DNA of 64,000 nucleotides from an uncultured Gemmiger sp. (GCF_944388105.1 NZ_CALXHN010000002.1); one strand, 5' to 3'. Positions 41,317-60,417 are shown, numbered from the stretch's first letter. Notes: generated by a model from the letters alone, not told the origin. Translations and numbers: made by a program.

Positions 41317-43146
41317 TTGTTCAAGCTGCTGGCAAGTATTTTCAAGCGTGTGGTGACGGCCGTCACCAACCCCTTCCGCATGCTGGTCGTGCGGATCCAG
41401 CGGATGTTCAACGTCAACATCCTGACGGCCAAGCTCATCCCGCCTCTTACCAAAAAGGTCAAGGCCCTGGTCACCCTCAAACCCCAGTCGCCCCAGGATT
41501 ATTTCAGTGTGGGGCGGTACTGGGTCTACAAAAAGCTGTTCCTGACCCTGATCCTGGTGCTGTGTGCGGCGGTGTTCCTGTACTTTTCCATGTTTGCCCC
41601 AAAGGTGACACCCAAACCCTCCCAGCCGGAACAGGTCATGACCACGGTGACCTTTGATTTTGACGATATGGCCCTGGCCGACTACACGGGCGTGGCCAAC
41701 ATCCGGGCAGCGGACGGCACCGTGGTGTATGTGGGGGATGTGGTGGCCGGCGTATGCACCGGCAACGGCACCCTGCGGGACCGCAAGGGCCGCCTGGTGT
41801 ATGAGGGCGGCTTTGAAAACAACCAGTACAGCGGCCAGGGGGTGCGCTACTGGCCCTCCGGCAATCCCATGTACGAGGGCGGGTTTGAGAAAAACCAGTA
41901 CAGCGGGGAAGGGGTCCTGTACGCGGAGGACGGCCGCACGGTCCTGTATGCAGGCAGCTTCAAGGGCGGCCTGCGGGACGGCGCCGGCAAAGCGTACGGG
42001 GAATCCGGGACCCTGCTCTATGAGGGCGAGTTCGCGGAGGACCTCTACCACGGTTCCGGCACGGAATATTACGAAAACGGCATCATTGCCTACACCGGCC
42101 AGTTCTTCCGCGGGGAACCCCAGGGCGAAGGCACCCTGTACAGTACCCAGGGACGTGCCCTCTACACCGGCTCGGTGTACGCCGGCAAGATCAATTACAG
42201 CGCCCTGGTGGGGGCCACACTGGCCGACCTGGAAGCGGCCTTCACCGAGACCCCCTGCATCTACTACAACGACACCGAAAGCGTGTTCCTCTACCAGGAA
42301 GCCGGCGTGGTCATTACAGTGGACTGCCGGGTCCGGGTGGATGTGTGGGAAAACGCCAACGCCGCGGCGGACCAGAGTGCCCCGCTGTATTACATGCCCG
42401 CCTCGGTGCAGACAACCGGCGCCACGGTGCGGGCGGTACACGCCCAGGGCGGAACCGGCATCCGCACGGTGGGGTGGGTGAATTCCGGCGGGGAATCCTC
42501 TTCCGGCGGGACTTCCGCCACCCCGGCACCGGCCACCCCGGCTCCCACGGCGGTGCCGGCCACGCCGGTCCCCGCCGCGATGGCCCCGTCCGGGAGCACC
42601 GCTTCCGGCGGTACCGCGGCTTCGGTCACCGCGCCGACCCCCAGCCCGACACCCAATCCGACCCCCATCCCGTCGCCCACCCCGTCGCCTGTGCCGTCGG
42701 CCGCTGCGGCCCCGGATTTCATCCAGAAAAACCTGACCCTGTATTTTGAGATCGACAGCAACATCTGGCAGGCGGAGGCCGACCTGGACAAGACCAAGGT
42801 CTTTGTCAGCGAGGTCACGGTATGTGCGGACAACATCCCGCTGGAAACTCTTTCCGCGGACGTGTATGAGGAGGACCGGCCTCCGGCCATCCAGGATTGC
42901 GTGGCCATTGAGCGCCTGCGCCGGGACGAGGCCACGGCATTTTCCAATGTGACCTTCCAGCTGGACCAGCAGAACAAGCTGTTTGTGGAGGTCAGCGGCG
43001 TGAGTTATGCCAACCAGATCCAGCGCTACGGGCTGGAAAAGGATGGTCTGGTATACGAATACTGCTATCCCTACGACACCGGCACCGTGCTGGATACCGA
43101 CACCGCCGGCACTGCGCCCATGTATTATTCCATCCGAAAGGGGTGA
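41317..43146 (+). CDS. Membrane-anchored MORN-repeat protein with Pro/Thr linker
   Basis: TTG start; TM LFLTLILVLCAAVFLYF; about seven YxGxFxxGxxxGxG repeats; PTPSPTPNPTP linker. Confidence 0.82.
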   Translation: MFKLLASIFKRVVTAVTNPFRMLVVRIQRMFNVNILTAKLIPPLTKKVKALVTLKPQSPQDYFSVGRYWVYKKLFLTLILVLCAAVFLYFSMFAPKVTPKPSQPEQVMTTVTFDFDDMALADYTGVANIRAADGTVVYVGDVVAGVCTGNGTLRDRKGRLVYEGGFENNQYSGQGVRYWPSGNPMYEGGFEKNQYSGEGVLYAEDGRTVLYAGSFKGGLRDGAGKAYGESGTLLYEGEFAEDLYHGSGTEYYENGIIAYTGQFFRGEPQGEGTLYSTQGRALYTGSVYAGKINYSALVGATLADLEAAFTETPCIYYNDTESVFLYQEAGVVITVDCRVRVDVWENANAAADQSAPLYYMPASVQTTGATVRAVHAQGGTGIRTVGWVNSGGESSSGGTSATPAPATPAPTAVPATPVPAAMAPSGSTASGGTAASVTAPTPSPTPNPTPIPSPTPSPVPSAAAAPDFIQKNLTLYFEIDSNIWQAEADLDKTKVFVSEVTVCADNIPLETLSADVYEEDRPPAIQDCVAIERLRRDEATAFSNVTFQLDQQNKLFVEVSGVSYANQIQRYGLEKDGLVYEYCYPYDTGTVLDTDTAGTAPMYYSIRKG

Positions 43147-43153
43147 TGCGTCC

Positions 43154-43732
43154 ATGGCAGATTTTTCCGTTGTGGCCGATGTGAGCGCCGGCCTGCTCCG
43201 GCTGCTGCGGGCGCAGATGTGCCCCTCCCCGGTCAGTGCCCCGGAGTCCATCCGGCTGGCGGCCCCCACCGACAAAAACGGGGACTTTCAGCTGGGGCTG
43301 TACCTGTACGATCTGCGGGAACTGGGCGAATACCGGGCCGGGGCCCTGCAGCGCGGGGCGGACAACATCCGCCGCCGTCCGCCCCGTCCGCTGACGCTGC
43401 ATTACATGCTGTTCCTCAACAGCAAGGCGCAGATGGCCACCGGTGCCGAGGCGGAACAGCGCATCCTGGGCAGGGCGCTGCAGGTGCTGTCGGACTACCC
43501 CGCCGTGGATGTGAACGAACTCCATCCCTATTCCCCGGAACCGGAGGAGGCCGCCGCCATCTCCCTGCTGACCCTGACCTTTGAGGAAAAAACCAAGATC
43601 TGGGCGGCATTGTCCACCCCCTATCAGCTGGGAATCTACTTTTCCGTGTCGCCGCTGATGCTCTCCTCCCGCCGGGAGGAATCCTTCGCCCGTGTGCGTG
43701 AGGTGGAGATACGGGGCAAACGTCCTCTGTGA
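43154..43732 (+). CDS. Pvc16/Afp16-like (DUF4255) CIS cap/terminator protein
   Basis: LGLYLYDLRE, PLTLHYML, EQRILGRALQVLSDYP, KIWAALSTPYQLGIYFSV. Confidence 0.85.
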   Translation: MADFSVVADVSAGLLRLLRAQMCPSPVSAPESIRLAAPTDKNGDFQLGLYLYDLRELGEYRAGALQRGADNIRRRPPRPLTLHYMLFLNSKAQMATGAEAEQRILGRALQVLSDYPAVDVNELHPYSPEPEEAAAISLLTLTFEEKTKIWAALSTPYQLGIYFSVSPLMLSSRREESFARVREVEIRGKRPL

Positions 43733-43776: not shown

Positions 43777-44481
43777 TTGATTCATATTTCCCTGCGTTTC
43801 GCGTTGCTGCTGAAAGACGATTTCAGCGGTGCGACCATAGCGGACGGCGGGCAGCGGTTCTTTGTCAACGGCCGGCCCGTCCGTCCCATCCGCAAGCCGG
43901 AAGGATTCTTTGTGTTCACCGCAGAGTCCGCCCCCGGACCGGAACCGGCCGACGGCTGGGAAGTGCGGATCGAAAGCACCCGCTATTTTGCCAGGACGTT
44001 GTCCGTCCGGTCGGACCAGCTGCCCCCGGACATGCCTCTGCGCCTGGTCCAGATGTACCGCCGGCCCCACAGCGGGTTTGCCGACTGTGACTGGTTTGAG
44101 GCCAAGGGCCCGCCGGGAAGGCTGGCCGCGCTCCTGTTCCGGGAGGACCCGCCCCTGGCGCTGAAAGCTTTTTCCGGCAACGGAGAGGCCATCAGCCTGC
44201 GCGGGTACATGGCGGCCAATCTGGTTTGGCGGCGTATCTGCGTGGGCAGCGGCTCCAAAGCGGAGCTGTTTACCCTGACGGCCCGCCGGCCGGACGGCGG
44301 ATACCGGGTGGATCATCCTGCCCGGAAGCGCTGGAAGGAAGGGGCGCCCGTCTATCTGACGGCCTGCGCTCCGGCCCAGCCCGACGGACGCTGCAGTGTT
44401 CCCATCCCGCCGGGATGGGCGGACAGGGACCCCGTTGTCCGCTGGTATGATGAGGAGGCGATGCGATGGCAGGAAATCTAG
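43777..44481 (+). CDS. Hypothetical beta-rich protein (prealbumin/carboxypeptidase-regulatory-like N-terminus)
   Basis: TTG start, 234 aa, LKDDFSG..KPEGFFVFT; lies between DUF4255 and the PAAR-like gene. Confidence 0.6.
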   Translation: MIHISLRFALLLKDDFSGATIADGGQRFFVNGRPVRPIRKPEGFFVFTAESAPGPEPADGWEVRIESTRYFARTLSVRSDQLPPDMPLRLVQMYRRPHSGFADCDWFEAKGPPGRLAALLFREDPPLALKAFSGNGEAISLRGYMAANLVWRRICVGSGSKAELFTLTARRPDGGYRVDHPARKRWKEGAPVYLTACAPAQPDGRCSVPIPPGWADRDPVVRWYDEEAMRWQEI

Positions 44482-44861
44482 TCTGCGCCGGTGCCCAGCT
44501 GATGTGCAGCTTCGGCATGGCGCCGTCCGCGCTGGTGGTCACCCCGCAGAACAAGGTCCTGTGCGGCGGTCCGCCCGCAGCCAACATCATGGATATGAAA
44601 CCCATGACCAACATCGTGCCCTTTGGCATGTGCAGCTCAATGGCCAATCCCACGGTGGCCTCGGCCACTTCCGCCGCCATGGGCGTGCTCACGCCCATGC
44701 CCTGCGTGCCGGTCATCACCGGACCCTGGGTACCGGGCAGCACCACCGTGCTGCTGGGCGGCATGCCGGCACTGAACAGTACCTGCAAACTGATGTGCGC
44801 TTACGGGGGAGTGATCCAGATCGTATCCCCCGGGCAGATAAAAACGACCGTAGGCAACTGA
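44466..44861 (+). CDS. DUF4280 PAAR-like spike tip
   Basis: VCAGAQLMCSFG, NIVPFGMCSS, PCVPV..PW, CKLMCAYGGVIQI. Confidence 0.9.
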   Translation: MAGNLVCAGAQLMCSFGMAPSALVVTPQNKVLCGGPPAANIMDMKPMTNIVPFGMCSSMANPTVASATSAAMGVLTPMPCVPVITGPWVPGSTTVLLGGMPALNSTCKLMCAYGGVIQIVSPGQIKTTVGN

Positions 44862-44932: not shown

Positions 44933-46648
44933 ATGGCTGAGTATTTATCCCCCGGAGTGTACGTGGAAGAATTTGAATCCGGCATGCGCGCCATGGAAGG
45001 CGTCAGCACCAGCACCGCCGGTTTCGTGGGCATGGCGGAGCGCGGCCCCGTGGTCGGCACGCCGGAATTCCTCACCAGCTTTGCCGACTACAAACGCAAG
45101 TTCGGCGGCTATTTGTCCGAAAACACCCATGGCGGCAACCGTTTCCTGCCCTACGCGGTGGAGCAGTTCTTTGCCAATGGCGGCGCCCGCTGCTATGTCA
45201 TGCGCGTGGCCCCCGCCGACGCCAAGGCCGCCAGTGCGGTGATGAGCTGCGTGGTGCTCACCGCCAAGAACCCCGGCAAGTGGGGCAACGGCATCCGGGT
45301 CACCGTCACCGCGGCCTCCAAGGGCAAGACCCAGGCCGTGGCCGTGACCGAGGATGCGGCCGCCGCCAAGACCTACACCCTCAAGAATGCCTCCGTCTTC
45401 AGCGTGGGCGATGTGGTGGCCCTGTATGAGAGCGGCCGTCTGGCCGGTCACAACCGGGTGGCCCGCGTCCAGGGCAACGAAGTCTCCTTTGAAAACGAGT
45501 TCGAGCAGGACATCGTGGACGCCGGTCTGGTGCCCCGCCGTATCCTGGCCAGCTGCGAAGTGAACATCGAGATCAGCTGCGAAGACGTGGCCGAAACCTA
45601 TGAGAACGTTTCCCTGAATCCCCAGGATGCCAGCTACATCGAAAACAAGCTGGCCCGGTCGGCCCTGGTCTCGGTCAAGGTCACCCCGGTGGAGGATGTC
45701 TGCCCGCCCATGCTGGCCCTCACCGGCGACGCAGCCGGGGAAAAGGCGGTCTTCACCCTGTCCGGCGGCACCGACGGCGACTGCCGGAAGATGGAAGATG
45801 CCATCTACATCGGCGGCGGCGACGCCCCCGGCAAGCGCACCGGTCTGGCCGCCTTTGAGGAAGTCAGCAACGTGAGCATCATGGCCATCCCCGGCATCAC
45901 CAGTCCGGCCGTGCAGCTGGCGCTGGTGGCCCACTGCCAGAACCTGGCCAGCCGGTTTGCCGTGCTGGACATGCCTCTGGAACTGACCAAACCCCAGGAT
46001 CTGCTGACCCACCGGGAGATCGTGGATTCCGACTACGCAGCCATGTACCATCCCTGGCTGGAAGTGTACGATATGGCGGCCAAGCGTCCTGCCTACATTC
46101 CGCCTTCGGGGGCCGTGTGCGGAATCTATGCCCGCAGCGACAACACCCGCGGCGTGCACAAGGCGCCCGCCAATGAGGTGGTCAACAACTGCATCGGCCT
46201 GTCCTGCATGTACAACAAGGGCGAGCAGGACCTGCTCAATCCCGCCGGCGTCAACCTGATCCGTGCGCTGCCCGGCCAGGGCATCCGGGTGTGGGGCGCC
46301 CGCACCTGCTCCAGCAACAGCCTGTGGAAGTATGTCAACGTCCGCCGTCTGTTCATCTATCTGGAAGAGACCATCCGCACCCAGACCAGCTGGGCGGTGT
46401 TCGAGCCCAATGACGAGGTCCTGTGGCTGCGCGTGCAGCGCACCATCGTTTCCTTCCTGCGGGATATGTACCGCTCCGGCGCGCTGGTCGGTGCCACCGA
46501 GGACGAGGCCTTCTTCGTCAACATCGGCCGCGACACCATGACCGAGCAGGATATCGCCAACGGCCGCCTGATCTGCGTGATCGGTGCCGCGCCCAGCCGT
46601 CCTGCCGAATTCGTCATCTTCCGCATCACCCAGAACATGAAAGAGTGA
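44933..46648 (+). CDS. Contractile tail sheath (Afp2/3/4, gp18-like)
   Basis: YLSPGVYVEE, FFANGGARCY, PPSGAVCG, RGVHKAPAN, WGART, YVNVRRL, VFEPN, PAEFVIFRI. Confidence 0.97.
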   Translation: MAEYLSPGVYVEEFESGMRAMEGVSTSTAGFVGMAERGPVVGTPEFLTSFADYKRKFGGYLSENTHGGNRFLPYAVEQFFANGGARCYVMRVAPADAKAASAVMSCVVLTAKNPGKWGNGIRVTVTAASKGKTQAVAVTEDAAAAKTYTLKNASVFSVGDVVALYESGRLAGHNRVARVQGNEVSFENEFEQDIVDAGLVPRRILASCEVNIEISCEDVAETYENVSLNPQDASYIENKLARSALVSVKVTPVEDVCPPMLALTGDAAGEKAVFTLSGGTDGDCRKMEDAIYIGGGDAPGKRTGLAAFEEVSNVSIMAIPGITSPAVQLALVAHCQNLASRFAVLDMPLELTKPQDLLTHREIVDSDYAAMYHPWLEVYDMAAKRPAYIPPSGAVCGIYARSDNTRGVHKAPANEVVNNCIGLSCMYNKGEQDLLNPAGVNLIRALPGQGIRVWGARTCSSNSLWKYVNVRRLFIYLEETIRTQTSWAVFEPNDEVLWLRVQRTIVSFLRDMYRSGALVGATEDEAFFVNIGRDTMTEQDIANGRLICVIGAAPSRPAEFVIFRITQNMKE

Positions 46649-46687: not shown

Positions 46688-47137
46688 ATGGCAGTCAATA
46701 CCTATCCCTTTAAGAAATACAACTACCGCGTGGAGATCGACAGCATCGACGTGGCGGCCTTCTCGGAGGTCAGCGGCTTTGATGCCAGCGTGGACGTCAT
46801 CGAATACCGCGAAGGCACCGATCCCATCAACTCCCCCCGCAAGATGCCCGGCCTGACCAAGTATGGCAACGTCACCCTGAAATGGGGCATGACCGAAAAC
46901 CTGTCCTTCTATGAATGGGTGGCGGGCATCTCCGACGGTTCCAAGGCCGCCGCCGAGGACCGTGTCCAGGACATCACCATCTACCTGCAGGACGACGCCC
47001 ACAACGACATCGCCAGCTGGACCCTGGTCAATGCCTGGCCCTGCAAGTACACCGCCCCCGACTTCAACGCCTCCTCCAGCGAGATCGCCTTCGAGAGCGT
47101 GGAACTGGCCTTTGAGGAAATGCGCAGAGACCAGTAA
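46688..47137 (+). CDS. Inner tube protein (Afp1/5, T4 gp19-like)
   Basis: FSEVSG..VIEYREG, KMPGLTKYGNVTLKWG, WTLVNAWPCKY, EIAFESVELAFE. Confidence 0.95.
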   Translation: MAVNTYPFKKYNYRVEIDSIDVAAFSEVSGFDASVDVIEYREGTDPINSPRKMPGLTKYGNVTLKWGMTENLSFYEWVAGISDGSKAAAEDRVQDITIYLQDDAHNDIASWTLVNAWPCKYTAPDFNASSSEIAFESVELAFEEMRRDQ

Positions 47138-47213: not shown

Positions 47214-47585
47214 ATGGAAGATTTTGCCACCGAATTTGAGTTCGATCTGCCCAAAGGGTACATCGATGCGGCCGGCACCCTGCACAAGCACGGGGTCATG
47301 CGTCTGGCCACGGCGGCGGACGAGATCCTGCCTTTGCGGGACCCCCGGGTGGTGCAGAATCCCGGTTACCTGACCATCATCCTGCTTTCCCGGGTCATCA
47401 CCAGTCTGGGCACCGTTCCCAAGATCGATCCCCGCGTCATCGAGCGGCTCTACTCCTCCGACCTGGCGTTCTTGCAGAGCATGTACCAGCGCATCAACGC
47501 CGTGGAGCCCATCGTGGAGACTTGTGTCTGCCCGGAGTGCGGCCATACCTTTGAGCATCAGGTAAATTTTACTTCAGCGGAGTAA
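47214..47585 (+). CDS. Tail assembly chaperone (G-like)
   Basis: FEFDLPKGYID, MRLATAADEI, DLAFLQ..Y..IN, CPECGH; directly after the tube gene. Confidence 0.8.
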   Translation: MEDFATEFEFDLPKGYIDAAGTLHKHGVMRLATAADEILPLRDPRVVQNPGYLTIILLSRVITSLGTVPKIDPRVIERLYSSDLAFLQSMYQRINAVEPIVETCVCPECGHTFEHQVNFTSAE

Positions 47586-47764: not shown

Positions 47765-48271
47765 ATGGGGAATGCCAACACACCGAACAAACGGCCGGAA
47801 CCGGTTTCGGGCTATCAGTTTCAGGTTTTTGTCAGCAATATCCGCATGGGTTTTTCCAAAGTGACCAACATCGAGGAATCCATCGAGACCCAGGCGTTTC
47901 AGGAAGGCGGCGTCAACGACCGCGTGTACTCCCTGTGCCGTCCCGCCTCCGCCGAGCGGACCCTTGTGCTGGAACGGGGACTGGGCAACAGCGGTCAGGT
48001 GACCGACCTGCTCAGCCCGCGTTCCGCCGTGGGCCGGCGCATCCTGCCCGATATCCTGATCATGGTGGGCGGACGCGGCGGCGCTGTCAGCAACATTTAT
48101 CAGGTGCACGGTGCGGTCATCAAGCGCTGGAGCCTGGGGGAACTGGATGCCCTGAACAGCCAGGTGGTCATCGAGCGGTTCGAACTGACCTACGAAACCC
48201 TGGAAACCTGTCCCGTCAGCAAAAATCTGGCCGGACGGTCCCTGGCCTCGGTCAGGGCGGGGGATGTGTGA
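47765..48271 (+). CDS. Second tube-like protein (gp19 family)
   Basis: YQFQV..GFSKVTNIE..QEGGVND..LVLERG..WSLGELDA..IERFELTYE. Confidence 0.85.
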   Translation: MGNANTPNKRPEPVSGYQFQVFVSNIRMGFSKVTNIEESIETQAFQEGGVNDRVYSLCRPASAERTLVLERGLGNSGQVTDLLSPRSAVGRRILPDILIMVGGRGGAVSNIYQVHGAVIKRWSLGELDALNSQVVIERFELTYETLETCPVSKNLAGRSLASVRAGDV

Positions 48272-48300: not shown

Positions 48301-51096
48301 ATGCTGCGGCCTGTGCTGGACCCTGTTCTGAGCAGGGAGATCCTTGCCCGCTATACCACCTTTGCCGGTTCGGTGGGGGCACCCGCTCCCATGGAACACC
48401 TGGCCCCCGCCGCGGCGGCACAGCCTGCCCGGTATGAGACCTATGTGGAAAACCTGCACCAGGTCACACAGGCCATCCGCAAAAACTATCTGATCAACCT
48501 GCAGCTGGATCTGCGGTTCCTGGCCCTGCAGCTGGCTTCGGCTGTGGAACAGGAAAGCCGGACCGAATCCCGGCGCATGCAGATGCTGGAACAGCAGGTC
48601 ACCGTCCTGCGGGAGGAGAGCGGCCGGCTGAAAGCCGCCCTCCGCACCGCCCCCCGCCGCCAAGGGGGCCGCTCCCGCGGACCGGACCGGGCCGCACGGC
48701 CCGCCGATGTCCGGTCTGTGGTAGAGAACGCCCGTCTGGCGGCAAAAGCCCCCTGGCCGCTGCTGCCCCAGCCGGAAACACCGGAAAAGCAGGGGACGGC
48801 CCCGGCATCGGGTCGGACGCCTGTCCCGGCGGAAACGGTTTTTCCCCACCCTGGCCGCATGCCGGTATCCGGCACGGCGGTGACGGAAATCCGTACTTCC
48901 TCCGCCCCGCAGGGCGGTCCGCTGCCGGTCCCGGCGGCGGAGTCTGCCCCGGCGGGTGTCCTTCCCCCCGGGGAGCCCAAGGCGGCGGTATCTCCCATGA
49001 TGCCGGTACAGCGGGTACTGCCCCGGCAGGAACCGCCGACACCGGAAAACAACGCAGCGCAGGAAAGCCGCCGGCAGCCCCTGTCCGCCGATTCCCACGG
49101 CAGGGCTTCCGCGCCGAAGGCGGCCCCCTCCGCCCCGGCTCCCGGGGAAAAAGCCCCGTCTCCCGCATCCGCCGCCGCGGCTTCCCCCCGTGTCCCTCTG
49201 GGACATACAGAACCTGATGAGCGGGACGCCTGGAAGGCGCCCCTGCCCGATCCCCGTCCCGCACGTCTGCAGCGGCCGGAACCGGCCCGACGCATCCTGC
49301 GCACAGACGTGACGGAACGGGCGTCAACCCGGCAGGACGCGCCCGCAGCTACCCGGCCGCCGGCCCCCGTGCGGGCGGACGGACCCCGCCAGACCCCGGA
49401 AACAGCGCACGCCGTTTCCGCTTCCGCAGCCCGGACGGACAGTCCGGTGCCAATGCCCAAACCCGAAAGCCGATCGCTTCCGACCCTCCGGCAGCAGCCG
49501 TCGGCAGCGGCGCAAGACCAGGCTTTGTCGGAAAGCCCGGAACCCCGGGAAGGGGTTGCCATCCGCACCGCGCCGCTGGTCCATGCCGCACCGGCCCTTT
49601 CCCCGGCCGCACCCTCTGCGTCACAGGCGGAACCCTGGCACAGTGACCGGCGGGACGGACTTGCCGCACCCCGGCAGGAAAAAGAAAGCCTGTCGGTCCC
49701 GGTGCAGCCGGCCCGTTCCGCGGCGCCTCCGGCGGAGGCGGCATCGCTGGTGCACGCCGCACCGACGCCCACGGTATGGGAACAACGGCCCGGGCAGAAG
49801 ATTTCTCCCCGGCCTTTCGCTGTGCCGGCCGCTTCGTTGCCGGTTCCCGGAAATCCGTCGGTGGGTTTTTCCGCAGGAGAGACCGGCCGGACGCCTTTGC
49901 GGGCGCCCACGCCGGCATCCCCGGCCGGTATCCCTGCCGCACAGCGGGTACTGCCCCGGCAGCAAATGCCGCCGGAACAGACCGCTGAAACCCGGCGGAT
50001 CCGGGCCCCGGAACCTCTGGCGGCGCCTGCATCCGGGCTCCGGGAGGGAGGGGGAAAGACCCCCGACAGTCTCCGGAAAACGGAAGCCCCCAGAACCCTT
50101 AAAACTGAGGAGTCCGCCCGCACCTGGACGGCAGAGGCCCGGACCCCGGACCGGTCCATCCGCCCGGAAAAGGTGGCGGCCCCGGAAACCGACCTGCCTG
50201 CCCGCACCGCTTCCGTTCCCGCCATGACAGCCACACCGCTGCTCCACCGCCTCTCTCCGGCGGAGGAAAAAGCGGCCGGTGCCCGGGAATCCGCCGCGGG
50301 GAAGGCACCGGATGTCCGCACTCCGGCGGCAATGTCCTTTCCGATGCCGGAGCGGGTGCCGGCCGTCTCTGCGCCGGCTGCTTTCCGAGGAATGTCCCGC
50401 GCCCCTTCCCCCGGTGGGCGGAAGGCGGAAGAAGGCAGTACCGTTTCCACGACGGAAGAGAATAACCGGCCCGCCGCCCGGTGGGATGCCGCCCCGCTGC
50501 GCACCCTGCCGGATTTTGTGCGCACGCCCATGATCCCCCGCGGGGGGATGGCATCGGTCCTTTCCGGGAACGGTACTGTCACCCGGCCGGAAGCCGGATA
50601 TGGGCTGCCCGCAGGGGCAGCCGCCGGACCAGCCCTGGTCCGTACAACGGCGGGCCTCACCCCTCCGGCGGTGCCGATGGCGCCGCTGGCCGCCGCCTCC
50701 CCGGTGATCCCGGCCGGCCAGACCCCGGCAGACAAGGCACCTTTGATGCCCCTGCCGCAGGGGAAAGCAGGAATCGGCATGCCGCCCGCCATACCGGCGG
50801 GCAGTCCGGCGCCCATGGAATTGCGCCGCACCCCGGTCCCTGCCCAAGGCACGGCCCCGACGGGCAGTGCAGAATGGCAATCCGACGGCATCCGGACGGT
50901 GCACCGCACCCGGACGGTACACCGGGAGACCATACAGCAGCCCACGACCGATGCCACGATCCGCCTTCCGGGAGAGACCCTCTCCGCTCCGGTATCCCGG
51001 ACCCTGGGCCCCGCCGAGGTGGAGCGGATCGCCGACAAGGTCTACCGGCAGATCGAAGAACGCCTGCGCAGTGAAAAGATGAGAAGGGGGATGTGA
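48301..51096 (+). CDS. Pro/Ala-rich, probably disordered 931-aa protein at the tape-measure position
   Basis: N-terminal coiled coil, low-complexity middle, C-terminal helix VERIADKVYRQIEERLRSEKMRRG. Confidence 0.65.
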   Translation: MLRPVLDPVLSREILARYTTFAGSVGAPAPMEHLAPAAAAQPARYETYVENLHQVTQAIRKNYLINLQLDLRFLALQLASAVEQESRTESRRMQMLEQQVTVLREESGRLKAALRTAPRRQGGRSRGPDRAARPADVRSVVENARLAAKAPWPLLPQPETPEKQGTAPASGRTPVPAETVFPHPGRMPVSGTAVTEIRTSSAPQGGPLPVPAAESAPAGVLPPGEPKAAVSPMMPVQRVLPRQEPPTPENNAAQESRRQPLSADSHGRASAPKAAPSAPAPGEKAPSPASAAAASPRVPLGHTEPDERDAWKAPLPDPRPARLQRPEPARRILRTDVTERASTRQDAPAATRPPAPVRADGPRQTPETAHAVSASAARTDSPVPMPKPESRSLPTLRQQPSAAAQDQALSESPEPREGVAIRTAPLVHAAPALSPAAPSASQAEPWHSDRRDGLAAPRQEKESLSVPVQPARSAAPPAEAASLVHAAPTPTVWEQRPGQKISPRPFAVPAASLPVPGNPSVGFSAGETGRTPLRAPTPASPAGIPAAQRVLPRQQMPPEQTAETRRIRAPEPLAAPASGLREGGGKTPDSLRKTEAPRTLKTEESARTWTAEARTPDRSIRPEKVAAPETDLPARTASVPAMTATPLLHRLSPAEEKAAGARESAAGKAPDVRTPAAMSFPMPERVPAVSAPAAFRGMSRAPSPGGRKAEEGSTVSTTEENNRPAARWDAAPLRTLPDFVRTPMIPRGGMASVLSGNGTVTRPEAGYGLPAGAAAGPALVRTTAGLTPPAVPMAPLAAASPVIPAGQTPADKAPLMPLPQGKAGIGMPPAIPAGSPAPMELRRTPVPAQGTAPTGSAEWQSDGIRTVHRTRTVHRETIQQPTTDATIRLPGETLSAPVSRTLGPAEVERIADKVYRQIEERLRSEKMRRGM

Positions 51097-51099
51097 CCC

Positions 51100-51915
51100 A
51101 TGCTGACACCGGACGCCGCCAAACCTGCGGCCAACAACAACACCAAAGGGTCCAACACCCTGACCCCCGCCAAACTGGAAAAGGCACGCCTGGAAATCAT
51201 AGCCGGGTCCAACGCCCGCACCACCACCGAAAAAAAGACGGTGACGGTGCAGTTCAACCCTTCGGAATATACCATTGAGCGGCATGCGCATCTGTCCCGC
51301 CGGCAGAGCCTGGGCAACAACGGCAGCCCGGACCAGGGCCAGGTCCCGGCGGGAGAGCCGGCCCGCCTCATCGTGCCCCTGTACTTTGATACAGTGACCG
51401 AACTGCCGGCCCTGGGCACGTCGGAGGCAAAGAGCTCGGCCAGAGGTGCCGAAGGCCTGGTGCCGCTCCTGCGGGAATCCGCCACAGCCGGCTCCAAGGA
51501 GAACCCGGCCGCTGCCTGTGCCGAGATCATGCAGCTGGTGAAATTCGTGCGCCAGTGCCACCAGCCCCCCAAGGTGAATTTCCTGTGGGGTACCCTGGAT
51601 TTCATCGGGGTGGTGGAAAATGCCACCGCGCAGTATACCATGTTCGCACCGGGCGGCACGCCGGTGCAGGCCCGGGTCCAGCTGGTCATTGTGGGGGAGG
51701 AACGGGCGGTGATCCAGCAGAGCACCCAGCAGCCCAATGAATCCCCCAACCGTACCAAGGAACGGACCCTGGCCCAGGGAGACCAGCTCTGGATGATCGC
51801 CGGCCAGGAATACGATGATCCCGGCCAGTGGAAGGTCATTGCCGAAGCCAACGGCATCCTCAACCCCCGCCGGCTGGAACGGGCGGTGGTGCTCAAGGTA
51901 CCGTCCATCAAATAA
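51100..51915 (+). CDS. Tube initiator with LysM-like domain (Afp7-like)
   Basis: VQFNPSEYTI, LYFDT, VNFLWG..F.GVV, MFAPGGTPVQARV; C-terminal GDQLWMIA..EYDDPGQWKVIAEANGI. Confidence 0.88.
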   Translation: MLTPDAAKPAANNNTKGSNTLTPAKLEKARLEIIAGSNARTTTEKKTVTVQFNPSEYTIERHAHLSRRQSLGNNGSPDQGQVPAGEPARLIVPLYFDTVTELPALGTSEAKSSARGAEGLVPLLRESATAGSKENPAAACAEIMQLVKFVRQCHQPPKVNFLWGTLDFIGVVENATAQYTMFAPGGTPVQARVQLVIVGEERAVIQQSTQQPNESPNRTKERTLAQGDQLWMIAGQEYDDPGQWKVIAEANGILNPRRLERAVVLKVPSIK

Positions 51916-51936
51916 CACCCGGAAAGGGGGCGCCCC

Positions 51937-53037
51937 ATGGACCTGATGACAGCCGGCACCAGTTACCAGCAGCTCAAGAGCAAGTATCAGGATTTCCGCG
52001 CCCCCACCGTGCGGATCCTGGTGGATGGCACCGATATCACCGAAAGCCTCAAGACCCGCCTGTCCCGGGTCACCGCCGATCTTACCTGCGGGTATGCCGC
52101 ATCGGGGGTCTCCTTTGATGTGATGGGGGAATACGACTATGAGCAGACCTCCTTTTCCGCCAAAGGCGCGGTGAAGGTGCTGCAGTTGGGCGCGCGGGTG
52201 GAACTGCAGCTGGGGTACATCCGTACCGAAACGGTGTTCAGCGGCCTCATTGCCGAGGTCCGGTATGAGTTCGAGGAGGACGACGCCCCCTACATCCATA
52301 TCGAATGTATGGACGCCAAATGCCTGCTCATGAAGATGCAGCGCCTGGAGATCCGCAGCGAAAAAAAGATCGCGCCCGTGGTCAATGCCCTGTTGGGGAC
52401 CCAGCCTGTCAGCACCTATCTGAGCGGGCGGACCGTCCAGCTGCAGGAAGCCGAACGGGAGCCGCTGCCCTTCAATATGGAAAGCGATTACGACTTTCTG
52501 GTGCGGCAGGCCCAGTACACCGGATGTGAGTTTTTCATCTTTGCGGGCAAGGCCTACTTCCGCCGCCCGCCTGCCGCCTCCACGCCCATCATGACCCTGG
52601 AACCCCGGCAGGGCATCTCCCGGGCCAGCTTCTCTCTGCGGGGCGCGCCGCTGGTCAAAAAGGTGACGGTGGTGGGGGTGGACCCCACCAGCGACGAACC
52701 GGTATCCGGCAGCGCCACGGCCCAGGGCAGCTTCGGCAAGGGCGCAGGCCCCAACCGGATGCTCTCCGGCACCGAGCGCACCTACTTTGATCCCCGCACA
52801 GCCAGTGCCCGGGATGCCGCAGACCGGGCCAAGGTCCTGATGGGCGGCATCCAGCAGCAGTTCGGGGTCCTCAGCTGCCGGTGCATCGGTCTGCCGGAGC
52901 TGGTACCGGGCCGCTGGATCAACATCAAGGGGCTTGTCCCCGAAGCCGACACCGGCTTTTATATCACCGATGTGCGGCATGTCTATTCCAAGAACGGCTT
53001 TACCACCACCTTTGATGCGAGGATCAGCAGCCTATGA
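51937..53037 (+). CDS. Spike hub, gpD/gp27-like (late control D)
   Basis: VELQLGY..VFSGLI, ESDYDFL..A...GCEFF..G..YF, GLPELVPG, YITDVRHVY. Confidence 0.88.
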   Translation: MDLMTAGTSYQQLKSKYQDFRAPTVRILVDGTDITESLKTRLSRVTADLTCGYAASGVSFDVMGEYDYEQTSFSAKGAVKVLQLGARVELQLGYIRTETVFSGLIAEVRYEFEEDDAPYIHIECMDAKCLLMKMQRLEIRSEKKIAPVVNALLGTQPVSTYLSGRTVQLQEAEREPLPFNMESDYDFLVRQAQYTGCEFFIFAGKAYFRRPPAASTPIMTLEPRQGISRASFSLRGAPLVKKVTVVGVDPTSDEPVSGSATAQGSFGKGAGPNRMLSGTERTYFDPRTASARDAADRAKVLMGGIQQQFGVLSCRCIGLPELVPGRWINIKGLVPEADTGFYITDVRHVYSKNGFTTTFDARISSL

Positions 53038-53822
53038 GTGAGATTACCCAACTTCTGGAACCCGGCGGGGAATTCGCCCGGGACCCGACCCTGCGCCGTC
53101 CGCCTCAGTTTGTGCAGGGCAAGGTGACCGACAACGCAGACAAAAACAACCCCGGCATGGTCAAGGTGGAGTTCCTTTCCTGGAAAAGCGGCAGCAACAT
53201 CTGCGAATGGATGCCCCTGCTGCACCCGTATGCCGGAAAAGCCTACGGCGCCTACGCCGTGCCCGAGATCGGGGACGTGGTCCTGGTGGGATTTATGGGT
53301 GCCGAGATGCGCCGCCCCTTTGTTCTGGGGGTGCTGTATCCGGCGGGAGCCCAGTATCCCGGCCGCTGTTTTGACAAGAAGAACAATGTCAAGGCCCTGC
53401 GCACCAAGGGCGGACACGAGGTCGTGCTGCGGGACGAGCAGGGCAAGGAAAGCTGCACCGTCACCACGCCCAAAGGGCTGACCGCCTGTCTGGACGATGA
53501 AAAGCAGTGCATCACCCTTTCGGACAAAAACGGAAAAAACCTGCTGCGTCTGGATTGCAAATCCGGGGAAGCCCAGCTCAACGCCGATGCCAAAATCGTT
53601 CTCAAGACCGGCAAATGCACCGTCACCCTGGACGGCCGGGGCGGGGAACTCAAGCTGGAATGTGACCGCCTGACGGCCAAAGCCACCCAGCAGGCCAACG
53701 TGTCGGCCAACCAGATGATGCAGCTGTCCGGCGGGATGCTCAAGGCCGAAGGCAAACAGACCGTCCAGGTCAAGGGCGGCGCCATGACCGAAATTTCCGG
53801 CGGCATGGTCAAGATCAACTGA
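53034..53822 (+). CDS. Spike protein, gpV/gp5 OB-fold plus beta-strand repeats
   Basis: GMVKVEF, GAYAVPEIGDVVLVGFMG...RPFVLG, RTKGGH, short beta repeats to the C-terminus. Confidence 0.9.
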   Translation: MSEITQLLEPGGEFARDPTLRRPPQFVQGKVTDNADKNNPGMVKVEFLSWKSGSNICEWMPLLHPYAGKAYGAYAVPEIGDVVLVGFMGAEMRRPFVLGVLYPAGAQYPGRCFDKKNNVKALRTKGGHEVVLRDEQGKESCTVTTPKGLTACLDDEKQCITLSDKNGKNLLRLDCKSGEAQLNADAKIVLKTGKCTVTLDGRGGELKLECDRLTAKATQQANVSANQMMQLSGGMLKAEGKQTVQVKGGAMTEISGGMVKIN

Positions 53823-53862: not shown

Positions 53863-54279
53863 ATGGCAGGCACACGGGATTTTCTGGGTACGGGATGGGC
53901 ATTTCCCCCCCGGGTGGACGCGGCGACCGGCCGTCTGGCCACCAGCAGCGAGGAGGAAAACATCCGCCAGTCGGTGCTCATCATCCTGACCACCCGCTGC
54001 GGGGAGCGCGCCATGCGCCCGGATTTCGGCTGCAACCTGCATAACTATGTGTTCGAACTGCCCGACCTATCGGCCCTGACCCGCATCAAGGCGGAGGTGG
54101 TGGAGGCCCTGACTCTGTGGGAACCGCGGATCATGGATATTGCGGTGGATGTGGACATGCACGACCTGGGCCGCGGCGTGCTCACCTTCACCATCGGCTA
54201 CACCGTGCGTTCCACCAACAACCCCAACAATCTGGTGTTCCCCTATTATCTGTATGAGGGCGTGGGGGACGAACTGTGA
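53863..54279 (+). CDS. gp25/GPW baseplate wedge (Afp9-like)
   Basis: FLGTGWAFP, IRQSVLIILTTRCGERAMRPDFGC, WEPRI, NLVFPYY. Confidence 0.93.
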   Translation: MAGTRDFLGTGWAFPPRVDAATGRLATSSEEENIRQSVLIILTTRCGERAMRPDFGCNLHNYVFELPDLSALTRIKAEVVEALTLWEPRIMDIAVDVDMHDLGRGVLTFTIGYTVRSTNNPNNLVFPYYLYEGVGDEL

Positions 54280-54299
54280 CCGCAAGGGAGGAAGCGCGT

Positions 54300-57167
54300 A
54301 TGAAACAGGAGAACCAGGCACTGCGCCGCAGGCTGCAGCAGCTGGCCGGCGCCTACGTGCCCGAATGGCGCTTCGACCCGCAGGACCCGGACCCGGGCTC
54401 GGCGGCGGCGCTGCTGCTGGAAGATATGCTGGCCGACAGCGAAAAACGCTTCGCCGATGTGCTGCGCATGCATAAGGTGCATTACCTGAACCTGTTTGAC
54501 CGCCTGCGGCCGGACCCGGCCCTCTCGGCCCGCAGCTATGTGCGGTTCGACCCGGTGGCCGGGGTGGAACAGCCTGTCTATGTGCCCCGGGGCACCGCAC
54601 TTCTGGCGGAGGACGCCCAGGGCAGTCCCTCCCTGGTATTTGAAACCACGGAGGGCATCACCGCAACGCCCGCCCGCCTGACGGCCATCGTGGCGGCACG
54701 GCGGGAACAGGATCACATTGTCACGGTGCTGGACGGGGATGACGCCGAACACTGTGTCTTCACCGCCTTTGACCCGGAACCGGAAAGTGAAGCCCACCAT
54801 CTGCTGACACTGGAATTTGACCGGGGACTCAGTACCCTGGAGGCAGGGGAGCTGGGCCTGCAGATCCGTACCCCGGACCCGCAGGATGCCCCGGCGGCCG
54901 CCCAGCGGCTGGGGGAGGAGGACGTATTCTTCACCCTGTCCGGACAAGGGGGAACCGAGCTGCCCCTGCCCCGTCCCCGGGTACAGGAGGACATCCTGTG
55001 GTTCCGTCTGGAGGAAAGCTGGCCCGCCTGTACACCGCCCGAGACCGCCCCGCGCTGGCGGCTGTGCGCCCGGGCACGCCATGCCATGGAACTGAGCGTG
55101 TGCGGCGCGGCCCTGGTCTTTTCCCGCACCGGGCTGGTCCCCCAGGAGGTCCGCAGCGCGGATATCACCCAGTCTCCCGGCCGGTTCTATCCCTTCGGGT
55201 CACCGCTGGAACTGTATACCGAATGCGGCATCGAGTGTCCGGCAGCGCTGGAACGTCCCGGCGCCGATGTGACCATGGAATTCGACCTGGACTTCGAGAC
55301 GGTGGAACAGACCCTGCCCGAGGTGGAGGTCGAGGTGGATTACAAGGTGATCATGCGCAAGGTCACCCAGACCCCCCGCCCGGAAATGCGGGATGTGCAG
55401 CCGGACTACGTCCTGATCGAATACCTGAGTACCCGCGGCTGGAAACGGCTGATGCCGGATGAACACGCGGCCCTGCTCTTCAACGGGTCAGCCCGGGGCC
55501 ATCTGGCGCTTTCCTTCCGCTGTCCCGGGGACCTGCTTCCCGCCGACCAGCTTCCGGAAGGATACCGCCTGCGCCTGCGCCTGCTGCGGGCGGACGGTCT
55601 GTACCAGCTGCCATGCCGGCAGCATGTACCGGTCATCACCGGCCTGTGTTTCTCCTACAGCTATGCATCCGCGCCCCTGGAACCCTGCGCGGTGCAAACC
55701 CGCAACAACTTCGCGGAGCAGGACCTGCTGCCCCTGTGGCGTCAGGGCCGGGGCACCCCTCTTTTTACCTGCAGCGAACGGCGGGGCGCCTGCCTGTATC
55801 TGGGGTTTGACGCCTGTCCCCAGGGCAGCCCGCTGAGCCTCTACTTTGAGGTGGAAAACCATGAGGACCTGCCCCTGAACTACGGGGTGGAATATCTTTC
55901 CCCCACGGGTTTCGTGCCGGTGCAGGCCCAGGACGGTACCGGAGGCCTGCTGTACTCCGGCTCCCTGCTGGCCCTGATCCCGGCCGATGCCGCCCGCGCC
56001 GTGCTGTACGGCAAGGACCGCTACTGGCTGCGGATGGTGTGCGGGGGGGACCTCACCCGGCGCTCCGGCCTGCCGGTGGTGCGCGGCATCACCCTGAACA
56101 TGGCCCGGGTGGAAAACCGCAGCACCCGCACCGAGACCTTCTTTGTGGACGATCCCCGGGCGGCGGTGCGGTTCAAACTGGGGGAAAATCACATCCTCAT
56201 GGCCCGGGTCTATGTGAATGAGGAACAGCCGGAAGACCCCGGCCGGGATCACTGGGTCCTGTGGCAGCGCCGCACCTACGCCGCCCAGCGGGGGCGGTTC
56301 TATGAACTGGACACCGCCGCCGGTGCGGTGCTCTTTGACCGGCATACTTTCTCGGTCTACGCCCCGCCCGAAGGCGCTCCCGCCGTGCGGGTGGAATACC
56401 AGAGCTACCAGGGCACCCAGGGCAATGTGCCGGCGGGGGCCATCCATACCATGGCGGAGCCCATCCGGTATATCAGCCATGTGAGCAACCCCATGGCAGC
56501 GTACGGCGGTACCGACGCGGGGGATGAACAGGTGGCCGCCGGACTGGTCTCCAACCTGCTGCGCACCCGGGGCAGGGCTGTCAGCGAGCGGGATTACTTT
56601 GATATCATCGCCCAGCTGGGCTGCGGCGTGCGGCAGATCAAATGCTGCAGCGGCATCGACCGCCAGGGCCGCCCCGCCGCCGACACCATCACGGTGGCCC
56701 TGCTCATCGACGAATACGAAAAAGGAAGCCACATCTTTTCCGCCGTCAAGGATGCTGTGCGTCAGGCCCTGACCGACGCGGGCGGCATGGTGCCCCTGGG
56801 CAAGACCCTGGTGCTCTGCCAGCCCCGGTTTGTGCGGTTTTCGGTGCGCATCTGGCTGCGCTGCTCCGATATGGAAAAGGTGTACGAGATACAGCGCCGT
56901 ACCGAACAGACCATCCGCCGGTTCCTGGACCCGCTGGAAGGCGGATTTGACGGCCGGGGCTGGAAGATCGGCTCCCTGCCCACGCCCCAGCAGCTGCTGG
57001 CCTGCCTGAAAATGCGGGACAGCGCCCTGCGTGTGGAGCGCATGGCCATGGTGGCCAGGGCCGGCGGCCGGGAATATGCGGTGGACGATGATTTCCTGAC
57101 CCGCATGAATGATCCCTTTGTCATGGCCATCAACGGTACCCATACGGTGTACGTGGACCTGAGCTGA
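54300..57167 (+). CDS. Baseplate J-like protein (Afp11/12 class)
   Basis: YVPEW...DPGSA, FETTE, YQSYQGTQGNVPAG, RAVSERDY, FLDPLEGG.DG.GW.IG; RBS GGGAGG before ATG 54300. Confidence 0.88.
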   Translation: MKQENQALRRRLQQLAGAYVPEWRFDPQDPDPGSAAALLLEDMLADSEKRFADVLRMHKVHYLNLFDRLRPDPALSARSYVRFDPVAGVEQPVYVPRGTALLAEDAQGSPSLVFETTEGITATPARLTAIVAARREQDHIVTVLDGDDAEHCVFTAFDPEPESEAHHLLTLEFDRGLSTLEAGELGLQIRTPDPQDAPAAAQRLGEEDVFFTLSGQGGTELPLPRPRVQEDILWFRLEESWPACTPPETAPRWRLCARARHAMELSVCGAALVFSRTGLVPQEVRSADITQSPGRFYPFGSPLELYTECGIECPAALERPGADVTMEFDLDFETVEQTLPEVEVEVDYKVIMRKVTQTPRPEMRDVQPDYVLIEYLSTRGWKRLMPDEHAALLFNGSARGHLALSFRCPGDLLPADQLPEGYRLRLRLLRADGLYQLPCRQHVPVITGLCFSYSYASAPLEPCAVQTRNNFAEQDLLPLWRQGRGTPLFTCSERRGACLYLGFDACPQGSPLSLYFEVENHEDLPLNYGVEYLSPTGFVPVQAQDGTGGLLYSGSLLALIPADAARAVLYGKDRYWLRMVCGGDLTRRSGLPVVRGITLNMARVENRSTRTETFFVDDPRAAVRFKLGENHILMARVYVNEEQPEDPGRDHWVLWQRRTYAAQRGRFYELDTAAGAVLFDRHTFSVYAPPEGAPAVRVEYQSYQGTQGNVPAGAIHTMAEPIRYISHVSNPMAAYGGTDAGDEQVAAGLVSNLLRTRGRAVSERDYFDIIAQLGCGVRQIKCCSGIDRQGRPAADTITVALLIDEYEKGSHIFSAVKDAVRQALTDAGGMVPLGKTLVLCQPRFVRFSVRIWLRCSDMEKVYEIQRRTEQTIRRFLDPLEGGFDGRGWKIGSLPTPQQLLACLKMRDSALRVERMAMVARAGGREYAVDDDFLTRMNDPFVMAINGTHTVYVDLS

Positions 57168-59316: not shown

Positions 59317-60417
59317 GTGAAGCAGCCGCTGAAACAAGTCAACTTCTATAAGCGCGCGCTGATGGCGGGCTGTTTCCACGGCTTTACGCCGGATGCGGAA
59401 CTGTGCCTGCATCTGCAGGACGCCGGGGGCGGCGCCTGGTTCGCCGCCTTTGACACCGCCGATGCGGACAGTACCTACAACCGTCTGGTGGTGGAAGGCG
59501 ACTTCGGGGGCAGCAAGCTGGAGATCCTGGTGGCGGTCAGCCCCACGGACACCGAGCCCACGGGGGAAAGTCTGGCGGCCTTTCTGGCGTCGGCAGCCTC
59601 CCCGGCGGAAAAGCTGGCCCGCCTCACCGCCCTGCGGCATCTGCGGGCGGTGGACCGGCAGGACATCCTGCTGCACAGCCTGCAGGGGCGGTGGGTGTAC
59701 CTTGGCATCTGCGCTTTGCCCCAGGACAGCGCCGACTGTGTGCTGCGGGGACTGCGGCTGGAATTCCCCCGGTACAGCTTCACCCAGTACTTCCCCGAGA
59801 TCTATCAGCAGGACGACTTTTTCCGCCGTTATATCGCGGTGTTTCAGTCGCTGTACCTGGACCTGGAAAGCCGGGTGGATGAGGTGCCCCGTCTGTTGGA
59901 TTATGAGAGCGCCGCTGACGATCAGGTGGAGACCCTGGCCGGGTGGCTGGGCATCGACACCGCCGGCGGGCTGTTCGGGCCGGACCAGCTGCGCAGCCTG
60001 ATCCGGGACAGCCAGCTCTACCAGGGCGGCAAGGGGACCCGGGCCGCCCTGGAAAAGGTGGTGGAGCTGGTCTGCGGCATCCGCCCGCAGATCGTGGAGT
60101 ATTTCCAGTGGAGCCGCCTGCCTATGCCTGCCGCCCGCCGCCGGCTGTATGAGACCCTGTACGGCGGGGACGGCAACACCTTCTGCGTCATTCTGAACAT
60201 GACGGCCCATCCCGGTCCCCTGCCGGTCAGCGAGGCCCAGCTGGACCGGCTGGTGGAAGCATACAGCATGCTGGGAACGAAACACCGTCTGGTGTTTCTG
60301 CGCCGGTGCAGCTACACCGACACCCACTGCTACCTGGACGTGAACAGCTGCCTGTCCACGCCCGAAATGGCGGCGGTGGACGGCGTGACCCTGGGCGGAT
60401 ACTTTACCATCGGATGA
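59317..60417 (+). CDS. P2 gpI-like baseplate/tail protein with N-terminal extension
   Basis: YFPEIYQ, LAGWLG, KGTRAALEKVV..VCG..P.IVEYF. Confidence 0.82.
   Translation: MKQPLKQVNFYKRALMAGCFHGFTPDAELCLHLQDAGGGAWFAAFDTADADSTYNRLVVEGDFGGSKLEILVAVSPTDTEPTGESLAAFLASAASPAEKLARLTALRHLRAVDRQDILLHSLQGRWVYLGICALPQDSADCVLRGLRLEFPRYSFTQYFPEIYQQDDFFRRYIAVFQSLYLDLESRVDEVPRLLDYESAADDQVETLAGWLGIDTAGGLFGPDQLRSLIRDSQLYQGGKGTRAALEKVVELVCGIRPQIVEYFQWSRLPMPAARRRLYETLYGGDGNTFCVILNMTAHPGPLPVSEAQLDRLVEAYSMLGTKHRLVFLRRCSYTDTHCYLDVNSCLSTPEMAAVDGVTLGGYFTIG

Follow-up and report, generated by a model that had tools for sequence, protein, structure and literature searches.

A candidate tape-measure analogue with a structure-poor spacer in the lineage II contractile injection system operon of an uncultured Gemmiger sp.

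The 64,000-nt stretch of DNA from an uncultured Gemmiger sp. (GCF_944388105.1 NZ_CALXHN010000002.1), referred to here as the window, holds a complete contractile injection system (CIS) operon of lineage II from an Oscillospiraceae gut bacterium, as deduced from Pfam, NCBIfam and PHROG scans. The genes are arranged in the order cap, DUF4280, sheath, tube, chaperone with a -1 frameshift, second tube protein, a 931-aa open reading frame (ORF), CIS_tube/LysM, gpD, spike, gp25, two baseplate-J proteins and gpI, and their coordinates are compiled in Table 1. The 931-aa ORF at 48301-51096 on the plus strand is a real ORF according to the ORF call on the 64,000 nt. It is preceded by a GGAGG Shine-Dalgarno sequence 9-10 nt upstream of the ATG at 48301, and its stop codon is separated by a gap of 3 nt from the ATG of the CIS_tube gene, which is translationally coupled to it. 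A preliminary description of the window had placed this ORF after the chaperone and second tube genes and before the tube initiator gene, and the placement was borne out by matches to phrog_508, Phage_T4_gp19 and CIS_tube. By analogy with known systems, the deduced protein is a candidate for, and probably represents, the tape-measure analogue of the 'Afp14-less' (lineage II, CIS-Sc-like) CIS.

The chaperone gene contains the slippery heptamer A_AAT_TTT of the canonical -1 type at 47564-47570, and four relatives (L006, L007, L009 and L011) retain heptamer and -1 frame despite differing flanking synonymous positions. The chaperone and its DUF6760 extension are, by analogy, the G/GT arrangement of phage lambda. 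The gpH protein of lambda with G/GT and the gpT protein of P2 with E/E+E' are chaperone-coated rulers around which the tube polymerises, and we know of no phage client of a frameshifting chaperone other than the tape measure protein. In the manner of a phage-type tape measure gene, the 931-aa ORF lies downstream of the chaperone with the programmed -1 frameshift, one tube gene being located in between, and immediately upstream of the tube initiator and baseplate hub genes. The locus and the phages therefore have in common the order of tube, frameshifting chaperone, long ORF and baseplate hub as well as conserved protein termini that enclose a variable, repeat-prone middle part. Unlike in phages, a second tube gene is present between the chaperone gene and the 931-aa ORF, and the spacer of the protein cannot form long helices. 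Such a phage-like placement between chaperone and initiator genes also distinguishes the ORF from the genes of the lineage I Cis14 proteins. A classical tape-measure domain was not detected by the domain scans in any large ORF of the window. Homologues of afp14 are generally absent from lineage II, and it was proposed that subtype-specific genes without an assigned function may compensate (Chen et al. 2019, PMC6899500). The CIS-Sc of Streptomyces coelicolor is without a typical tape-measure gene, yet its particles have a uniform length of 268 nm (Casu et al. 2023 and 2025 eLife, PMC12237407). With respect to this gap in the literature on lineage II, the 931-aa family provides a concrete candidate for the missing ruler. 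The searched literature contained no mention of DUF6760 or of a disordered CIS tape measure.

The base composition of the gene required an assessment of its coding nature. The G+C contents at the three codon positions are 0.75/0.63/0.74, the values for the first and second positions (GC1 and GC2) being unusually high, unlike those of the neighbouring genes with their usual excess of GC3 over GC1 and GC2. Moreover, very long open frames on the minus strand, located at 48486-51038 (850 aa) and 49621-52980 (1119 aa), overlap the gene and its neighbours. Both observations would suit a high-GC artefact from which no functional protein is made. The antisense frames, however, are chance ORFs driven by the G+C content that a gene finder could miscall, and conservation sits in the plus frame and not in the antisense frames. 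Both termini of the protein are conserved with a nonsynonymous substitution rate (dN) of approximately 0, orthologous ORFs of 642-852 aa occur in lower-GC genomes in which chance ORFs of that length do not arise, and the Shine-Dalgarno sequence, the coupling to the next gene and a family of 92 cluster representatives likewise speak against an artefact. Since the ORF is conserved, this explanation is already refuted and is left with virtually no probability.

The 931-aa protein revealed no Pfam match at E-values up to 10, either as a whole or with its N-terminal 120 aa or C-terminal 108 aa, and the same holds for five divergent members of the family. Additionally, no NCBIfam or PHROG match was obtained, including the PHROG tape-measure families, and a comparison of full-length and C-terminal profiles with PDB sequences yielded no relative and returned designed helical repeats only, with E-values of 6-8. 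A word-indexed search provided 52 related proteins, whereas 92 family members, 60 of them at E <=1e-10, were detected when a profile was run against 1.84 billion cluster representatives (50% clustering), and all 92 representatives were recognised via the N-terminal and/or the C-terminal module. A pattern scan of genome contigs gave seven loci only, all from Oscillospiraceae or Bacillota, owing to the high specificity of the patterns. The presence of both end modules and a variable low-complexity spacer assigns the 931-aa protein to an unannotated family that is defined here, on sequence criteria, by these two modules and that includes full-length members of 608-1112 aa. The N-terminal module carries the signature I-x-x-R-Y-T and the family-wide invariant residues I14, R17, N62 and F73. 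The C-terminal consensus comprises hydrophobic-hydrophobic-[H/Y]-[R/K], DI-x-T-I-[K/R], A-I-N-x-P-G and ...IADKVYxxLExRLRSEKMRRG, with Y915, R921, E925, R928 and G930 as invariants in the alignment A4 of divergent members and E919 also named as invariant; the last 31 aa are 85-96% identical among homologues.

The linkage of this family to the slot between chaperone and tube initiator was analyzed in 201 genomes of the same taxonomic family. A family match was present in ten of them, in all ten directly upstream of CIS_tube and on the same strand, and this arrangement within a CIS operon was also found in L006, L007, L009 and L011. Nine other genomes contain CIS_tube without a profile match. 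All four loci inspected among these nine possess an ORF of 1035-1954 aa in the same slot. A comparable basic helix terminates three of these ORFs (L018, L021 and, with a looser resemblance, L020), and the ORF of L021 was matched by the C-terminal hidden Markov model (HMM) with an E-value of 1e-12.

The structure of the 931-aa protein was predicted as a single chain with AlphaFold2 (AF2) and a 33-sequence alignment. Helices were assigned to residues 8-24, 44-111, 137-148 and 904-928, whereas the 755 residues from 149 to 903 appeared as coil with a predicted local distance difference test (pLDDT) score below 50. The mean pLDDT of the whole model is 43, that of residues 50-100 ranges from 64 to 78, and the terminal helix at 904-928 reaches 80-95. 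The predicted helices at both ends (8-148 and 904-928) agree with the N-terminal coiled coil and the C-terminal helix that had been proposed to flank a long middle part, and the disorder prediction recommended at that time as a check returned low-confidence coil over the entire middle. This middle is of low complexity as described before, but only moderately so (3.0-3.7 bits per 40-aa window). Proline accounts for 17.5% of residues 116-834, with a median gap of four residues between prolines and a longest Pro-free run of 19 aa, and this density excludes the long helices of classical rulers by sequence alone. Phage tape measure proteins consist of long helices or coiled coils; a comparable extended body is lacking here, since only residues 44-111 form a long helix. 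The mainly alpha-helical central region of Cis14/Afp14 likewise has no equivalent in the 755 coil residues. By the Uversky charge-hydropathy plot the spacer was not classed as disordered; as such a coarse criterion is not reliable for sequences rich in Ala and Pro, disorder was judged by the AF2 model and the spacing of prolines. A membrane helix was not found in the whole protein, the maximal 19-residue hydropathy being 1.27 with no window above 1.6.

Across the family, the composition of the spacer tracks the G+C content of the genome, ranging from 1.3 to 21% for Pro and from 13 to 48% for the sum of Asn, Gln, Ser and Thr. An 852-aa relative encoded in a lower-GC Oscillospiraceae genome contains Gln/Asn-rich tandem repeats in place of Pro and Ala, and its AF2 model displays the same terminal helices and one additional helix (243-284), with 515 residues modelled as coil of low confidence. 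As composition follows genome G+C, the Pro/Ala richness represents an effect of mutational bias. The preliminary description had named the protein by this trait, which is correct for the protein itself (17.0% Ala and 15.1% Pro, along with 10.2% Arg) but does not define the family, since low-GC relatives with the same architecture have 1-7% Pro. The conserved property is a polar, structure-poor spacer.

The selection acting on the individual parts of the protein was deduced from two strain-level copies (L009 and L010) with 96% amino acid identity to it. The ratio of nonsynonymous to synonymous substitution rates (dN/dS) amounts to 0.81-0.85 in the spacer, in which 57 substitutions and no insertion or deletion (indel) were counted in 719 codons, and to 0.35 in the C-terminal module, whereas dN is 0 in the N-terminal module and the neighbouring genes display dN/dS values of 0-0.22 in the same comparison. 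Among six sub-clades, the spacers are 0.29-0.35 identical, compared with 0.25-0.28 for shuffled spacers, while identities of 70-92% were obtained for the N-terminal and of 59-82% for the C-terminal modules. The lengths in these six sub-clades are nevertheless 920, 930, 931, 939, 976 and 979 aa, corresponding to a coefficient of variation of 2.7%, and lengths of 675-746 aa are typical of a second group of relatives. Overall, the frame and the approximate length are preserved and the sequence is free, which is what a ruler of the spacer type would predict and is no proof of it. The near-neutral sequence of the spacer, the C-terminal module as the most conserved part and the translational coupling to the tube initiator gene could also be read as the signs of a hub or tube-initiation scaffold with the initiation role of T4 gp29 only, which nucleates the tube via its C-terminal module and carries the spacer as an inert tether without length read-out. 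An inert tether, however, would hardly be expected to hold 920-979 aa across sub-clades with randomised spacers, and it is not expected to keep enriched short motifs or a conserved N-terminal module, so that we regard a mere scaffold as quite improbable.

The short motifs of the spacer include the APLVHA type that had been noticed as recurring, and its four matches stand against 0.02-0.03 expected from 2000 shuffles; the motif is conserved in relatives. A more general form, hydrophobic-hydrophobic-[H/Y], has 134 occurrences in spacers from 37 members versus 37.4 expected (3.6-fold) and is individually significant in 21 of them. This pattern is usually preceded by Pro, Ala, Ser or Thr and returns every 50-77 residues in the repeat-bearing relatives. 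An exact duplication of 21 nt had also been reported and is real, although its length is 22 nt (49008-49029 = 49941-49962); it encodes QRVLP, which is present in relatives as well, and the R[VI][LF] class is found 35 times versus 9.9 expected across the family (3.5-fold). Because both patterns were defined after viewing these sequences, the enrichments are descriptive. The chaperone or the tube lumen might make contact with the protein at these short motifs. A further linear block at residues 298-345 follows the pattern VPLGHxEPDE..PLPDPRPARLxRPEPxRRVLR, with L300, G301, H302, P314, P318, P320 and R322 invariant in the alignment A1, and is restricted to a sub-family, as it is absent from distant family members. 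In relatives, true tandem repeats are present whose periods are about 50-52, 62-77 and 9-12 aa. An internal duplication of about 311 aa in the 931-aa protein, considered on the basis of weak DNA repeats spaced 921-969 nt apart, was rejected, as the self-BLAST was empty off the diagonal and the offsets were within the range of shuffled sequences. In the clade comprising P0005 to P0030, an indel step of 68 aa corresponds to one APLVHA-bearing repeat unit.

More distant loci on plasmid records were searched for counterparts of the slot protein. In Paenibacillus cellulosilyticus (NZ_CP054613.1, L026:14529-16130), the slot contains a 534-aa ORF that matched the C-terminal HMM with an E-value of 1.6e-5, and a 1830-aa slot ORF of Deinococcus actinosclerus (CP029777.1, L027:13224-18713) gave a weak match (E-value of 0.28) at its exact C-terminus. 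The sequence matches suggest that the anchor helix reaches beyond the Clostridia. A plasmid locus of Halogeometricum borinquense (L025) carries chaperone, DUF6760 and tube genes, the retrieved stretch not including the baseplate-proximal slot. The plasmid-borne CIS of S. clavuligerus (NZ_CP065235.1) comprises sheath, tube, chaperone, a 52-aa ORF, about 3.9 kb without a listed gene, tube 2, LysM and VgrG genes, and its chaperone is 54% identical to that of the window (E-value of 1e-46). The 3.9-kb stretch is a single ORF of 1381 aa (L024:11792-15937), rich in Pro, Ala, Thr and Gly and containing many VQR-type motifs, which has a basic C-terminal helix, LDRLARRLVAPLSRLLRAELRGDRERVG, alignable in register with the terminal helix of the 931-aa protein. 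It resembles the 931-aa ORF in its location between the chaperone/DUF6760 pair and the tube 2, LysM and VgrG genes, with the difference that the order relative to tube 2 is swapped. The 1381-aa ORF also exposes an annotation problem, since no more than the last 71 of its codons are recorded as a gene in the incomplete PLSDB gene table. The same table contains a small 'hypothetical protein' on the opposite strand inside this ORF. The EAT8/EAT12 'Nucleoporin?' toxins (Geller et al.) were considered as slot proteins and discarded as unrelated, the 180-nt gene of EAT12 (Ccel_1518) being located behind the fibre genes at the 3' end of its operon.

The following course of assembly is proposed for the 931-aa protein as a ruler. 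The basic amphipathic helix of the C-terminal module of about 97 aa would dock in the complex of hub, spike and tube initiator, presumably at the hub and spike proteins encoded at 51937..53822 (+), and would seed the growth of the tube. The chaperones G and G-DUF6760 might hold the disordered spacer of about 690-755 aa, possibly via its short motifs, and recruit polymerising tube subunits, in the way lambda G/GT act on gpH. Selection on the spacer would concern the reading frame, the approximate number of residues and a few hydrophobic motifs (PLVHA-like and QRVLP-like), leaving its sequence and composition free to drift. Tube and sheath would elongate up to the N-terminal helical module of about 148 aa, which would indicate that the tube has arrived and let the Pvc16-type cap bind and close the particle. 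The conserved modules at both ends are compatible with the layout of phage-type tape measures, in which the C-terminus lies inside hub and spike and the N-terminus at the terminator. We infer that the protein measures as an extended chain. In AlgoCIS, Alg14 was shown to be a true ruler with 0.229 nm per residue, and a slope of 0.2156 was obtained across extracellular CIS (eCIS) systems (bioRxiv 10.64898/2026.05.27.728243). With these published coefficients (0.216-0.229 nm per residue), the 931 aa predict a particle of about 200-213 nm; 140 nm would result if the whole chain were helical and at most about 290 nm if it resembled polyproline II. By the same coefficients, a ruler of about 1170-1240 aa would be expected for the 268-nm particles of S. 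coelicolor; the SLP particles of S. lividans measure about 300 nm. The proposed lumenal, baseplate-anchored and length-setting role is shared with Afp14, Pvc14 and Alg14, which also belong to the largest ORFs of their operons.

Several data weigh against the assignment as a ruler. The protein has no sequence similarity to known tape measures, including the Pfam family CIS_TMP, the profile of Cis14/Afp14, and the solved CIS structures. The rulers known from eCIS and phages have a predicted helical structure, and an 847-aa DUF4157 protein with a helical tail is encoded in the same locus. Homology of the slot proteins to the 1381-aa ORF of S. clavuligerus cannot be demonstrated, as the C-terminal HMM gave no match and hhalign a probability of 3.9%, and this ORF is therefore treated as a positional and architectural counterpart. 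With regard to length, one clade of 92-100% identical proteins (P0005 to P0030) spans 865-969 aa owing to in-frame indels of 1, 2, 5, 6, 30 and 68 aa, which are confined to the spacer, and the wider slot family extends from about 530 to 1950 aa. Finally, a free disordered chain is not rigid, so that a chaperone coat or contacts with the tube lumen must be assumed. Since this rigidity of the ruler is the weakest point of the model, we consider the assignment probable and not more than that. The earlier proposal of a ruler in the tape-measure slot is supported in part, as it fits the conserved slot beside the frameshifting chaperone, the conserved ends, the near-neutral spacer that keeps frame and length and the lack of a classical tape-measure gene in the window. 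Its emphasis on Pro and Ala was misleading.

The tolerance of indels of up to 68 aa in close relatives would also be compatible with a passenger or plug that fills the lumen and is expelled when the system fires, perhaps acting as a disordered effector or an aid to translocation, with particle length being set otherwise or by assembly kinetics. Known eCIS cargos pass through the lumen in an unfolded state and carry disordered loading regions at their N-termini. The protein Tme of the S. davawensis CIS (PMC11126660) occupies the slot just upstream of the baseplate genes, is about 70% disordered, binds spike and tube-initiator proteins and was characterised as an effector; it combines a DUF4157 domain and tape-measure-like segments with coiled coils, predicted membrane-spanning helices and an EndA-like nuclease at its C-terminus. 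The 931-aa protein, however, contains neither an internal DUF4157 domain, although the same scan detected eCIS_core in its 847-aa neighbour, nor an enzymatic or otherwise folded effector domain according to the domain scans, and transmembrane helices and a C-terminal nuclease were not found by hydropathy analysis and domain scans. Purifying selection that is limited to the two termini and short motifs suits an assembly component better than a toxin, the length remains within 6% while the sequence randomises, and the strict coupling to chaperone and tube initiator is unlike the variable 3' end of the operon where cargos sit. A passenger role, named in the preliminary description as lumenal cargo, is for these reasons unlikely.

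Another explanation assigns the ruler function to the 847-aa DUF4157 protein (60458-63001) and a different role to the 931-aa protein. The helical content of the DUF4157 protein matches that of classical rulers, and Tme joins DUF4157 with tape-measure-like segments. DUF4157 proteins, however, are cargos in AlgoCIS, whose study also predicted the known eCIS tape measures to be helical (bioRxiv 10.64898/2026.05.27.728243), and the gene is located at the distal end of the operon and not beside the chaperone gene. Furthermore, S. lividans particles remain structurally normal when Sle1, a helical protein related to tape measures, and its DUF4157 partner Sle2 are both deleted (Nagakubo et al.), which speaks against a DUF4157 or helical protein as the ruler and calls for another one. 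A ruler function of the 847-aa protein is accordingly considered highly unlikely.

The assignment of the 931-aa protein as a tape-measure analogue has a mechanistic parallel in YscP and FliK, partly disordered Pro-rich proteins inside a growing tube, in which the residue count sets the length of needle or hook and the ruler segment tolerates insertions and deletions with little sequence constraint. The machines are unrelated, the analogy is restricted to the mechanism, and no T3S4-type domain is present in the 931-aa protein, which has no Pfam match. It is conceivable, if somewhat less than an even case, that lineage II CIS in general, including the Streptomyces machines of uniform length, measure length with an intrinsically disordered ruler, of which the 931-aa protein would be the Oscillospiraceae member. 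In such a class, and with the same reserve, selection might act on the residue count, the C-terminal hub-docking helix, the N-terminal stop module and a few motifs read by the chaperone or the lumen, while the remainder drifts. If true, a phage-tail-like machine could use a ruler with almost no constraint on sequence or fold, as type III secretion does, and the protein would offer an easily tunable element for length and capacity to engineers of programmable injection systems.

Table 1. Features of the CIS operon and of the 931-aa slot protein in the window
Feature	Position	Strand	Evidence or remark
Tape-measure-slot protein, 931 aa	48301..51096, stop included	+	ORF call; Shine-Dalgarno sequence; homologues in same slot in 10/10 related genomes
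N-terminal helical module, aa 1-148	48301..48744	+	AF2 helices; motif ILARYT..F; APMEHL at 48385-48402
Disordered spacer, aa 149-834	48745..50802	+	AF2 coil; Pro content; near-neutral evolution
QRVLPRQ motif	49009..49029; exact nucleotide copy 49942-49962	+	Part of 22-nt repeat
Sub-family linear block in spacer, aa 298-345, VPLGHTEPDE..PLPDPRPARLQRPEPARRILR	49192..49335	+	Column identity 0.60-0.66, 53 homologues
APLVHA motif	49570..49587; further ASLVHA 49741-49758, TPLLHR 50233-50250, variant APMELR 50809-50826	+	
C-terminal module, aa 835-931: PAPMELRR, IRTVHRTRT, terminal helix VERIADKVYRQIEERLRSEKMRRGM	50803..51093; helix 51010-51084	+	AF2; conservation
Cap/terminator, Pvc16_N	43007..43732	+	PF14065, E 4e-29
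DUF4280	44466-44861		
Sheath	44933-46648		
Tube	46688-47137		
Tail assembly chaperone, G-like, C-terminal zinc ribbon	47214..47585	+	phrog_508, E 7e-8
Chaperone -1 frameshift extension, DUF6760, 65 codons, without own start codon	47564..47761	+	DUF6760, E 4e-14
Second tube protein, gp19-like (Phage_T4_gp19)	47765..48271	+	PF06841, E 1.5e-12
Tube initiator CIS_tube with LysM-like C-terminus	51100..51915	+	PF19266, E 1e-24; LysM, E 1.6e-4
Baseplate hub gpD (Phage_GPD)	51937-53037	+	Pfam
Spike (Phage_base_V)	53034-53822	+	Pfam
gp25	53863-54279		
Two baseplate-J proteins	54276-57167 and 57223-59301		
gpI-like	59317-60417		
DUF4157 (eCIS_core) protein, 847 aa, long helical tail	60458-63001		

Three additional genes were identified at the borders of the operon. 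A second large ORF follows the DUF4157 gene at the 3' edge of the window (63033-63998) and gave no Pfam match over the available 322 aa; this site downstream of the DUF4157 gene is the usual place of the CIS ATPase. Upstream of the operon, an AAA ATPase is encoded at 26649-28475 (PF00004, E-value of 1e-27). The region at 28220-35809, just upstream of the CIS operon, specifies a giant protein of 2529 aa with six Fn3_assoc / CHB_HEX_C repeats, which may be a surface or fibre-like component.

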